A stretch of 37,461 nt of DNA from a virus (IMGVR_UViG_2875703104_000006), one strand, 5' to 3'. Positions 9,263-31,898 are shown, counted from the first letter of the stretch. Translations and numbers: made by a program. The notes: a model not told the origin generated them from the sequence alone.

Positions 9263-9796
9263 TTATCTGTCGATACCCCAGCACGCCAGCGCGCTCTCCT
9301 GGTCACGACGGGATACCTGACCGTAACAGTTGTTTGAACGAATACGGCAGTCTCTGCCACCGTCCTTAATCCACCAGCGAATCGCTTCGCAGGCACCTTT
9401 TCGATCACCAGCATTAATTCGTCTGTAAAACGTCGACGGGAAACACTTACCGGGACCAATGTTGTACGGACAGAATGACGCGATCCCCGCTTTCTGGGGT
9501 TCGGTCAGCGGCACTCTGATGTTTTTCTCCACCCACGCCAGCGCTTTATCACGCTCAATGGCGTTAACCTGGTCGCATTTTTCCTTCGACAACTTCATGC
9601 CCGGAACGACAGGTTTGCCATCCACCATGATGGCACCACGGCAGATGGTCCAGATACCTGCACCATCACGGTATGCCGTGGTGTGGTTGCCTTCCTTTTC
9701 ATCCAGAAACTGGTCGAGAATGTCAGGCGCAGGCGCACCAGCGGCAATCAGCGCCAGAACGGCAGCCGACAGGCCGTATTTGATTTTGGTGTTCAT
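9263..9796 (-). CDS. R: Phage lysozyme (GH24-like endolysin) with Gly/Ala-rich N-terminal signal-anchor (SAR-type)
   Basis: 177 aa; N-terminus KYGLSAAVLALIAAGAPAP is a weakly hydrophobic SAR-like segment; body resembles lambdoid prophage lysozymes. Confidence 0.85.
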   Translation of the reverse strand: MNTKIKYGLSAAVLALIAAGAPAPDILDQFLDEKEGNHTTAYRDGAGIWTICRGAIMVDGKPVVPGMKLSKEKCDQVNAIERDKALAWVEKNIRVPLTEPQKAGIASFCPYNIGPGKCFPSTFYRRINAGDRKGACEAIRWWIKDGGRDCRIRSNNCYGQVSRRDQESALACWGIDR

Positions 9797-30179: not shown

Positions 30180-30845
30180 TCAAATAAAACCAGCTGCCTT
30201 CCGGCGTTCGTATTCCTGTTTCAGCCGTTCAATTGGCGTTGGCCCTTGCGGGTGTTTCGCCCCTTCCAGTTGTCGTCGCACTGGCGGAACACTCATCCCG
30301 TTACCAACATGCTTTGCCCATTTCGTCAGTTGCCGTTCCGCAAGTCGTTTTAACTCACCCTGCGTCATCTGGCGCTCAATCCCTCTGGTACGCATTTCGA
30401 GGCAGATGTGGTACAGCACAGGCTGAGGCCACGGATATTTGTCGCTTCCGTCATATCGCCAGGACTCATCACGCCAGCGGCGGTACTCCTCCATCACAGC
30501 ATCCACCGTCAGGCCAAATGGATTGGCCCCGCTTTCTGAAATCAGCGCCACAAACTCAGCCAGGTCCGGAGGCCATGTTTCACCCGCCCGGCAGCGGTCC
30601 ATGCACTGGCGGCAGACCTGTCGGATTTGCTGCTCAGTCATCGCGCCAATCTGTGCAATCCAGAGCTTCGAAGGTGCGGCCCCGTTCTTCTGGGTCCAGC
30701 GGTTCGAATAAACCTCCCCCATGAGTTCCCACAGCTTCCAGACCGTTTCCGTCGCTGATAAATCCGTTTTCACGTTCCCACTGCTCACGTGCTGCCCGAA
30801 TTTCCTGAACTGCCCGTGATGCGGTGCCACCTGGTGCTGCTGCAT
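30180..30845 (-). CDS. Replication protein P-like (helicase loader family); true start probably internal
   Basis: C-terminal two-thirds align by eye with lambda P (YPWPQPVLYHICLEMRTRG...TQGELKRLAERQLTKW vs lambda ESYPWKSNAHYWLVTNLYQNMRAN...). Track start overlaps the O-like gene by about 210 nt. Confidence 0.55.
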   Translation of the reverse strand: MQQHQVAPHHGQFRKFGQHVSSGNVKTDLSATETVWKLWELMGEVYSNRWTQKNGAAPSKLWIAQIGAMTEQQIRQVCRQCMDRCRAGETWPPDLAEFVALISESGANPFGLTVDAVMEEYRRWRDESWRYDGSDKYPWPQPVLYHICLEMRTRGIERQMTQGELKRLAERQLTKWAKHVGNGMSVPPVRRQLEGAKHPQGPTPIERLKQEYERRKAAGFI

Positions 30846-31674
30846 GGTTTACCCCCTTGCTGACTGGCTTAACCTGCGCCCTGACGTGATTTACGTGACG
30901 GGCGAATTTCTGCTCCCACTGAACCTGCGTGAAAACTTTCCCCTCCGCTGCCCAGTAGTCCCGGAAAGCGGCAAGTTCAGCAGGTGTAAATTCCGGCTCC
31001 GGCAAAGCCATCCCCCACAACGCAGCCCGTCGTCGAAAATCCGGCGACGGATGCCAGTCATCGACCATCGGAAATTTCCCGATGGGTTCGCTCAGTCCAT
31101 CCAGGGATGCAGGTTCTGCTGCCTGCAACGGCGTACCACTCGACTCACTGGTCGGAGCACTCTCGCGCACGTGCGCGTTATGTGTGGGGTTTAATTCTTT
31201 ATCTGTATCTTTATCTGTCGTGACTCGTCGTGACATGTCGTGACATATGCGTGACTCGTCGTGACACCCCTCATTCTGTTTTCGTAATTTTTCCCTCTCG
31301 CGCTGCGCTCTCTTGCGCTCTGCCGGGGATTTCGCGGTTTGTGAAACGTTGCCATTGTCCTCTTTCAGTACCTGGCGTTTTTCCCATCCGGTGATTAAAT
31401 CTCCATCAAGTACCCGCCCCTGCATTGCCTGTAAAATTGAATCAATTACTTCTTCCGTCACATCAAGCGCACTTGCTAAATCTTCCGTCGTGACATCAAT
31501 GTGACCACGTAGTGACACGCCGTGACATGTCGTGACATTTCGTGACGCGCTCACCAGAAGGTGGATATACACTGCCATCACTGTTGCAATTGGCTGCCCT
31601 GACACCCTGGCAATTGTTCGCCACTTAGGGTCATTTGGCATGTCATGCCATAATCTGAGCCAGGCGTTAGCCAT
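30634..31674 (-). CDS. Replication initiator (O-like; DUF1376/YdaU-like N-terminus, DnaT-like C-terminal region) containing two iteron clusters
   Basis: N-terminus MANAWLRLWHDMPNDPKW; ATG at 31672-31674 preferred; 5' end lies inside a 151-bp duplication artifact (N at 31711), so the exact start is uncertain. Confidence 0.6.
   Translation of the reverse strand: MANAWLRLWHDMPNDPKWRTIARVSGQPIATVMAVYIHLLVSASRNVTTCHGVSLRGHIDVTTEDLASALDVTEEVIDSILQAMQGRVLDGDLITGWEKRQVLKEDNGNVSQTAKSPAERKRAQREREKLRKQNEGCHDESRICHDMSRRVTTDKDTDKELNPTHNAHVRESAPTSESSGTPLQAAEPASLDGLSEPIGKFPMVDDWHPSPDFRRRAALWGMALPEPEFTPAELAAFRDYWAAEGKVFTQVQWEQKFARHVNHVRAQVKPVSKGVNHAAAPGGTASRAVQEIRAAREQWERENGFISDGNGLEAVGTHGGGLFEPLDPEERGRTFEALDCTDWRDD
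31217..31264. repeat. Iteron cluster 1: five GTCGTGAC-type repeats at about 10-bp spacing (candidate ori)
   Basis: Repeats begin at 31217, 31227, 31237, 31249, 31257. Confidence 0.6.
31487..31546. repeat. Iteron cluster 2: six (C)GTGAC(A) repeats at 10-11-bp spacing
   Basis: GTGAC at 31490, 31501, 31512, 31522, 31532, 31542. Confidence 0.6.
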
Positions 31675-31898
31675 ACTCACCTCTTCTGATACCGAATCTT
31701 TTTACTCACAANGGTGGATATACACTGCCATCACTGTTGCAATTGGCTGCCCTGACACCCTGGCAATTGTTCGCCACTTAGGGTCATTTGGCATGTCATG
31801 CCATAATCTGAGCCAGGCGTTAGCCATACTCACCTCTTCTGATACCGAATCTTTTTACTCACAAATTGCCGGAAGTGATCCGGTATGAATATTGCGAG

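Follow-up and report, generated by a model that had tools for sequence, protein, structure and literature searches.

The DNA analyzed here is a stretch of 37,461 nt from the virus IMGVR_UViG_2875703104_000006, and the whole of this stretch is referred to below as the window. An initiator gene is located on the minus strand at 31674..30634 and encodes 346 aa when it is read from the ATG that PGAP assigned in an identical E. coli prophage; the open reading frame itself covers 31680..30634. The downstream gene, also on the minus strand (30845..30180, 221 aa), encodes a lambda P-like helicase loader, as indicated by matches to PF06992 (E 5e-16) and to PHROG 109, 'P-like helicase loader'; in E. coli 118UI, whose prophage is identical, its annotation reads 'replication protein P'. 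Its open reading frame and the 3′ end of the initiator gene share 212 nt (30634-30845), read in different frames, and the Pfam P and PHROG 109 matches begin at aa 55 and aa 19, respectively, both upstream of the PGAP start at aa 69. PHROG 15931, a profile of 482 aa, matched the initiator and P as if they were fused; a frameshift fusion of the two, or an earlier start of P, is possible. Upstream of the initiator are ydaT-, ydaS- and dicA-type genes, which form a Rac-type immunity region. A consensus scan for promoters and terminators inside the initiator gene gave none above shuffle expectation, and a candidate DnaA box, GTGTATATCCACC (31564-31576), was rejected because only 7 of its 9 positions agree with the consensus and because the site is not kept in the Pseudomonas phage.

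The window is a draft scaffold. At 31712 a single N connects the two copies of an exact 152-nt duplication (31560-31711 = 31713-31864), which repeats the 5′ end of the initiator gene together with its upstream region and has no counterpart in E. coli 118UI, although the prophage there is 100% identical. Runs of 21 N at 1922, 4054, 4377, 6928 and 16217 are each followed by a repeat of the preceding 129 nt. These N-joined duplications look like unmerged scaffold overlaps, and hence assembly artefacts. The array region described below is unaffected by the scaffold duplication.

Within the reading frame 31674..30634 there are two arrays of a short repeated word and an AT-rich tract. On the plus strand of the window, the arrays comprise eleven GTGAC cores in a single orientation with steps of 10-11 nt; because the initiator gene is on the minus strand, the word in gene sense is GTCAC(G). 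Array A, the upstream array in gene sense (31489..31546, minus strand), contains six GTCAC(G) cores with plus-strand starts at 31490, 31501, 31512, 31522, 31532 and 31542 (steps of 11, 11, 10, 10 and 10). Array B, located downstream (31219..31265, minus strand), contains five GTCACG cores that start at 31220, 31230, 31240, 31251 and 31261 on the plus strand (steps of 10, 10, 11 and 10). The arrays are 270 bp apart from start to start, with 229 bp between their nearest cores. A lone core in the opposite orientation (31457..31461, plus strand) is found 33 nt downstream of array A in gene sense. Of the 7 exact copies of GTCGTGAC in the 37.5-kb window, 6 fall inside the 330-bp array stretch and one lies outside it, at 9302.

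The arrays are not a product of chance. Given the window-wide frequency of GTGAC, 0.40 copies are expected in 330 nt and 11 were observed (P(>=11) = 6.6e-13). In 2000 dinucleotide-preserving shuffles of 31150-31600, no 5-mer reached more than 3 copies in a chain with 9-12-nt spacing, compared with the observed 11. Across the entire window, no non-homopolymer 5-mer other than the array word had six or more copies per 60 nt, and no further cluster of the array word was found elsewhere in the 37.5 kb, which may not span the whole prophage. The two phased iteron clusters that a first-pass annotation of this DNA had placed in the initiator gene are thus real, as is their separation of about 270 bp from start to start. 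Their limits and order required adjustment: the first cluster ends at 31265 rather than 31264, and because the gene is read from the minus strand this cluster (31217-31265) is the downstream array B, while the second (31487-31546) is the upstream array A.

The evidence points to selection on the repeats as DNA, and not as protein. The period of 10-11 nt is not a multiple of three, and the cores are therefore read in all three frames; they translate as VT(T), CH(D/G) or SR, and no peptide repeat results. Entropy was measured in 21 non-redundant homologues that carry the GTCACG class of core, are diverged, and are collinear through codon 100. In these genes the array-A cores contain seven four-fold degenerate sites, whose mean entropy was 0.12 bit, compared with 1.61 bit for 26 other four-fold sites of the N-terminal domain (Mann-Whitney p = 7e-5), and the 4-nt spacers between the cores varied freely. 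The sole four-fold site outside the arrays with zero entropy, at gene nt 195, falls in an oppositely oriented CGTGAC core that corresponds to the lone GTCAC at 31457, and a CGTGAC copy at gene nt ~193 is also present in phage Evi and in Pseudomonas and Aeromonas phages. In E. coli variants the cores and their period are kept and the 11-nt step is shifted, so that the linker peptide CHDESRICHDMSRRVTT changes to CHDESRRVTHMSRQVTT.

Array A has 4 to 6 copies among close relatives, and in phage Evi and a Shigella prophage it is 21 nt shorter, which equals two repeats or seven codons. Such length differences in 21-nt (7-codon) steps would fit replication slippage, and the arrays might then be a by-product of slippage, or of a repetitive peptide, that has no function at the DNA level. 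This is extremely improbable. The cores lie in all three frames and encode no peptide repeat, their synonymous sites are frozen while the spacers and the peptide vary, and the architecture is kept even where the core sequence differs. The same features rule out codon repetition as the source of the repeats.

The initiator protein appears to consist of two domains joined by a linker. The C-terminal domain (aa ~193-270) is a DnaT-type, single-stranded DNA-binding three-helix domain that matched PF17948 (E 1e-17) and PDB entries 4OU6 and 4OU7 (E 4e-20), with a Foldseek TMt of 0.75 at 58-60% identity. The N-terminal ~135 aa matched no Pfam family above threshold, and a profile search for a solved relative of this domain gave chance-level matches only. 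Similarity to TIGR01714 (phage_rep_org_N) was weak (E 9e-4; 19.4 bits against a cut-off of 49.8). Among seven diverse members of the family, weak matches to TIGR01714 were found in two and to PF09681 (Phage_rep_org_N) in one. A match to a Crp-type helix-turn-helix at aa 57-86 was also weak (E ~0.04). PHROG families 1408 and 3729 label the initiator family 'replication initiation protein', many homologues carry the NCBI name 'phage replisome organizer', and the gene itself is annotated only as a 'DnaT-like' or 'replisome organizer' protein. The N-domain family comprises 1895 representatives of 50%-identity clusters at E<=1e-3. Taken together, these similarities hint at an HTH-like N-domain (aa 1-~135), weakly similar to phage replisome organisers and fused to a DnaT-like domain. 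The first-pass annotation described the open reading frame as O-like, but the initiator is not a lambda O homologue: the Pfam family Phage_rep_O was not matched by the whole protein at E<=0.01 or by the N-domain at E<=10, and only the partner gene is lambda-P-like.

Array A encodes aa 43-62, which in alignments form an indel-rich loop just before the putative helix-turn-helix, and array B encodes aa ~137-153 of the interdomain linker, which is predicted to be disordered. An AlphaFold2 model that was built from an alignment of 11 sequences had a mean pLDDT of 49.8, which is too weak for fold assignment. Its helices at aa 10-45 and 60-90 were confident, and the pLDDT fell below 50 at aa 47-58, encoded by array A, and at aa 134-204, which are encoded by array B, the AT tract and the remaining linker sequence. 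A Foldseek search with this model recovered the DnaT domain only, and matches to winged-HTH proteins (CRP, GlxR, MarR) had E>1. The low confidence and frequent indels of the array-encoded loop and linker suggest that the arrays are placed where the protein tolerates arbitrary sequence.

To determine how widely this architecture occurs, ~66 usable homologous genes were collected by tblastn on phage records and by a scan of one genome per species. These genes come from phages and prophages of Gamma-, Beta- and Alphaproteobacteria, and the hosts include Escherichia, Shigella, Serratia, Pseudomonas, Aeromonas, Bordetella, Chromobacterium, Ralstonia, Burkholderia, Cupriavidus, sphingomonads and others. 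The array search was motif-agnostic: any 5-mer in chains with 9-12-nt spacing was accepted, and two arrays were defined as six or more chained copies. Two phased arrays were found in ~45 of the 66 genes, at gene nt ~129-165 and ~340-460. When flanking segments of the same loci were used as controls (330 segments of 600 nt each), 322 contained no chain and 8 contained one chain of three. The presence of two arrays, which the first-pass annotation regarded as less usual, is accordingly the rule in this initiator family.

The core unit in these genes is NNNACG(C) followed by a spacer, and the variable triplet is lineage-specific. The GTC triplet is found in E. coli, Pseudomonas, Aeromonas, Bordetella and Serratia, the GCA triplet in Ralstonia, Cupriavidus and Burkholderia, and GTA, CGA, GGA, GTG and ACT triplets in other lineages; the cores of the individual lineages read GTCACG, GCAACG, GTAACG, CGAACGC, GGAACGC or GTGACGC. 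Arrays A and B of one genome always have the identical core. The last core of A and the first core of B are separated by 228-230 nt in the phages with GTCACG cores and by ~190 to 250 nt in the other classes. When residues that might determine specificity were sought by their co-variation with the core class, the top columns were either encoded by the iterons or inseparable from phylogeny. In two distant Pseudomonas homologues (L066 and L069, 30-46% identity), array A has 8 GTGACG units and array B consists of two groups of three (gene nt 146-223 and 448-509), so the copy number can expand well past the 4-6 of enterobacterial phages.

The arrays occur with differing C-domains. The homologue of Aeromonas pAEv1818 has a DnaT domain, and arrays are also present in Pseudomonas phita81A, Ralstonia Hennie and Gilvimarinus, where the C-domain has no Pfam match. 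In these comparisons the arrays travel with the N-domain and not with the C-domain, an association that is partly forced by their position inside the N-domain gene. A minority of the homologues, which includes Manatee Spring phage, a Microcystis phage, L037, L040 and L048, has array B only or no detectable array. Array B and the tract without array A were found in Manatee Spring phage, L033, L051 and L054, and array A is therefore not indispensable to the family.

An AT-rich element, which the first-pass annotation had left to be looked for beside the iterons, is present at 31190..31217 on the minus strand. This candidate DNA unwinding element reads ACAGATAAAGATACAGATAAAGAATTAAA in gene sense, directly abuts array B, has an A+T content of 79% and is rich in purines on the coding strand. 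It contains two copies of the 12-mer TCTTTATCTGT, at 31196 and 31208, and the lowest GC content of the gene (0.325) is reached at 31180-31219. Similar tracts were found across the family: in 38 of the 42 loci with array B, at least two AGATA, AGAGA or AGAAG units are present in the AGATA(A/C)/AGAGA-type hexamer-repeat tract that follows it, and in 32 of the 42 this tract is the top purine+AT 30-mer of the 900-nt region; several of the misses are mis-called chains. The tract at 31190-31217 is thus likely to be the unwinding element. A perfect palindrome of 14 bp, CGCGCACGTGCGCG (31164..31177), lies 13 nt beyond the tract and was flagged as a stem; Rac-SA53 and some E. coli variants have imperfect versions of it. 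The origin of lambda has an inverted repeat to the right of its AT-rich region, and the palindrome is reminiscent of it.

The tract is also the point at which two sources of the gene meet. The segment 30634-31216 has 92-93% DNA identity to Rac-SA53 and related prophages, where it corresponds to the C-terminal half of ydaU and the first part of ydaV, and the segment 31196-31680 has 87-88% identity to phages Evi, Tritos and vB_EcoS-640R1. The two matches overlap at the tract AGATAAAGATACAGATAAAGA (31196-31216), which occurs in Rac-SA53 too. Judged by these matches, the initiator gene is a mosaic of an Evi-like N-module and a Rac-like C-module with the joint exactly at the AT tract. Rac-SA53 also has the same ydaS/ydaT/dicA-type immunity region, and its loader gene shares the 92-93% identity of the initiator C-half and the tract. 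The N-domain of its YdaU is different, however, since it belongs to DUF1376 (followed by DnaT), and no GTCAC arrays accompany it. The comparison with a Rac-type initiator that the first-pass annotation recommended therefore yielded a common C-half and AT tract only, and no phased arrays were detected in Rac-SA53 ydaU (L003, 3085-3410). The only repeats in that gene are a 19-nt pair (GCAAACA..AAAGC..), whose copies are separated by 301 nt, and, immediately upstream of the AT tract that the two genes share, the inverted pair TGTTCAAACA / TGTTTGAACA. Because the AGATA tract is common to initiators with unrelated N-domains, such as the DUF1376 protein of Rac-SA53, it may double as a linker for module exchange.

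Repeated sites followed by an AT-rich tract, inside an initiator gene and beside a helicase-loader gene, are the signature of ori-lambda and SPP1 oriL, and an origin is therefore the most likely reading of the locus. We consider it probable, at roughly three chances in four, that 31190-31546 is the vegetative replication origin of a Rac-like lambdoid prophage, located inside its own initiator gene. This agrees with the first-pass annotation, which had taken the iterons in the initiator gene as the likely origin, and the reading now gains comparative support from the DNA-level constraint, the wide conservation and the flanking tract, which is the AT-richest of the gene. None of the phage records of the family that were examined carries a rep_origin annotation at this locus, and this type of origin was not found described in the searchable literature, which omits much of the subscription literature.

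The mosaic joint at 31196-31216 would also fit a quite different role, in which the arrays serve another protein or process, for example a repressor or antirepressor, a host factor, a packaging or partition protein, or a recombination hot spot for module exchange. We regard such a role as highly unlikely. The arrays always accompany the N-domain family, across differing phages, hosts and neighbouring genes, the core co-varies between the two arrays within genomes, and no second cluster of the word is found in the window. In addition, iterons and an AT tract beside a helicase-loader gene form the classical signature of an origin (PMC5737612, PMC7466680).

A further question is whether both arrays belong to the origin proper. 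Array B and the AT tract might suffice, and array A and the inverted core might then be a control element that titrates or 'handcuffs' the initiator, or blocks transcription, and so autoregulates the initiator gene; the control iterons of the P1 and F plasmids act in this way. In ori-lambda, unwinding and in vitro replication need only the iterons beside the AT-rich tract (PMC7466680), some of the homologues have array B and the tract without array A, and the copy number of array A varies from 4 to 6 among close relatives. However, in most of the family the conservation of array A is as strong as that of array B, the two always have the same core, and the distance between the arrays is nearly fixed (228-230 nt in the GTCACG class), which fits a joint structure. 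The division into an origin and a control element is rather unlikely, and it would plausibly refine the reading of the locus as an origin rather than exclude it.

The best-known system for comparison is ori-lambda, which is located inside the O gene and consists of iterons and an AT-rich tract; the lambda iterons are ~19-bp imperfect inverted repeats that are bound by O dimers, and extra iterons in Stx phages add 13 aa to the initiator (PMC7466680). In lambda and in the Stx phages 933W and P27, as in the gene studied here, the origin is in the initiator gene, the sites precede an AT tract in the linker-encoding region, and the next gene encodes a helicase loader of the P family. Extra iterons lengthen the initiator in both cases, by 13 aa in the Stx phages and by 7 aa here, and the N-module and its iterons swap as a unit against the C-module. 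The differences are in the protein domains and in the repeats. The N-domain is not Phage_rep_O and the C-domain is DnaT-like; the cores are 6-bp asymmetric direct repeats in units of 10-11 nt, once per turn, in contrast to the 19-bp inverted repeats of lambda; and where lambda has one array, the present locus has two, which are separated by ~230 bp and of which one falls within the sequence that encodes the DNA-binding domain.

The oriL of SPP1 is located inside gene 38 and comprises AB boxes and a DUE (PMC5737612). It resembles the present locus in that boxes and an AT-rich unwinding element lie inside the gene of a replisome organiser (G38P). The initiator may also be related to the organiser family, to which its similarity (TIGR01714 and PF09681) is weak and below the family cut-offs. 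The SPP1 system differs in its loader, which is G39P and not lambda-P-like, and in having a second distant region, oriR, for which no counterpart was found in the window (which may not cover the whole prophage). By this comparison the candidate origin would work like ori-lambda and SPP1 oriL, but it falls outside the lambda O/iteron family; its principle is not new, as it follows the logic of those two origins.

Origins with two sets of sites include those of P4 (ori and crr), the SaPIs (iteron sets flanking an AT-rich region) and the P1 and F plasmids (origin and control iterons). In these systems the same short word occurs in two clusters and one initiator binds both, and the clusters are intergenic or flank an AT-rich region or the rep gene. 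The present locus differs because both clusters precede the AT tract and lie within the coding sequence of the initiator. Another relative is the DopC/DopE pair of Cellvibrionales and Oceanospirillales, which are described as chromosomal genes that have been domesticated; no iterons were found in them by the authors, who named the N-domain HTH_36 (PMC5509034). DopC/DopE show the same order, in which a lambda-P-like protein follows an O-like protein that combines an HTH N-terminus with a DnaT-type C-terminus, but the prophage gene differs from them in carrying full arrays. The Gilvimarinus (Cellvibrionales) homologues were considered as dopC and rejected, as L021 has no DnaT domain and lies beside phage-like genes.

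If the locus is an origin, initiation may proceed as follows. Monomers of the initiator would bind the 6-bp GTCACG cores through the N-terminal HTH-like domain, and with one core per helical turn the proteins would line up along the same side of the helix, at 6 sites in array A and 5 in array B. The arrays would then bend the DNA and could pair across the ~230-bp spacer to form an O-some-like complex. Such a complex would be expected to destabilise the AT-rich, purine-rich AGATAAAGATACAGATAAAG tract beside array B. The DnaT-like C-domain may hold the melted single strand, dock the lambda-P-like loader that carries host DnaB, or do both, and replication would start once DnaB is brought in.

This scheme can be extended, tentatively, to the family as a whole. 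The extended proposal is a conserved bipartite origin in which array A, in the loop of the DNA-binding domain, and array B, in the linker, would cooperate by looping or wrapping the ~230 bp between them to melt a universal purine tract of AGATA repeats, and in which the variable 3 nt (GTC, GCA, GTA, CGA or GTG before ACG) would set the replication-specificity or incompatibility groups of co-resident prophages. As a complete proposal it falls somewhat short of being probable.

A located origin would provide a testable cis element for studies of prophage induction, for plasmid vectors of the lambdoid type, and for phage interference with an 'origin on a plasmid'. The class-specific cores may allow shared and unshared replication specificity among co-resident prophages to be predicted from sequence. 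The locus also illustrates clearly how constraint on the DNA dictates part of a protein sequence, since the loop and linker peptides are translated candidate binding sites.

The initiator gene is very common. Of 5426 complete E. coli genomes, 2564 contain DNA similar to it, and in 658 the match is nearly full-length. The carriers include O157:H7 prophages, and up to 6 places per complete genome were matched. In E. coli draft assemblies, 'partial' versions of the initiator are very many and contigs frequently break off within its gene, which is probably a consequence of its presence in several related prophages per genome.
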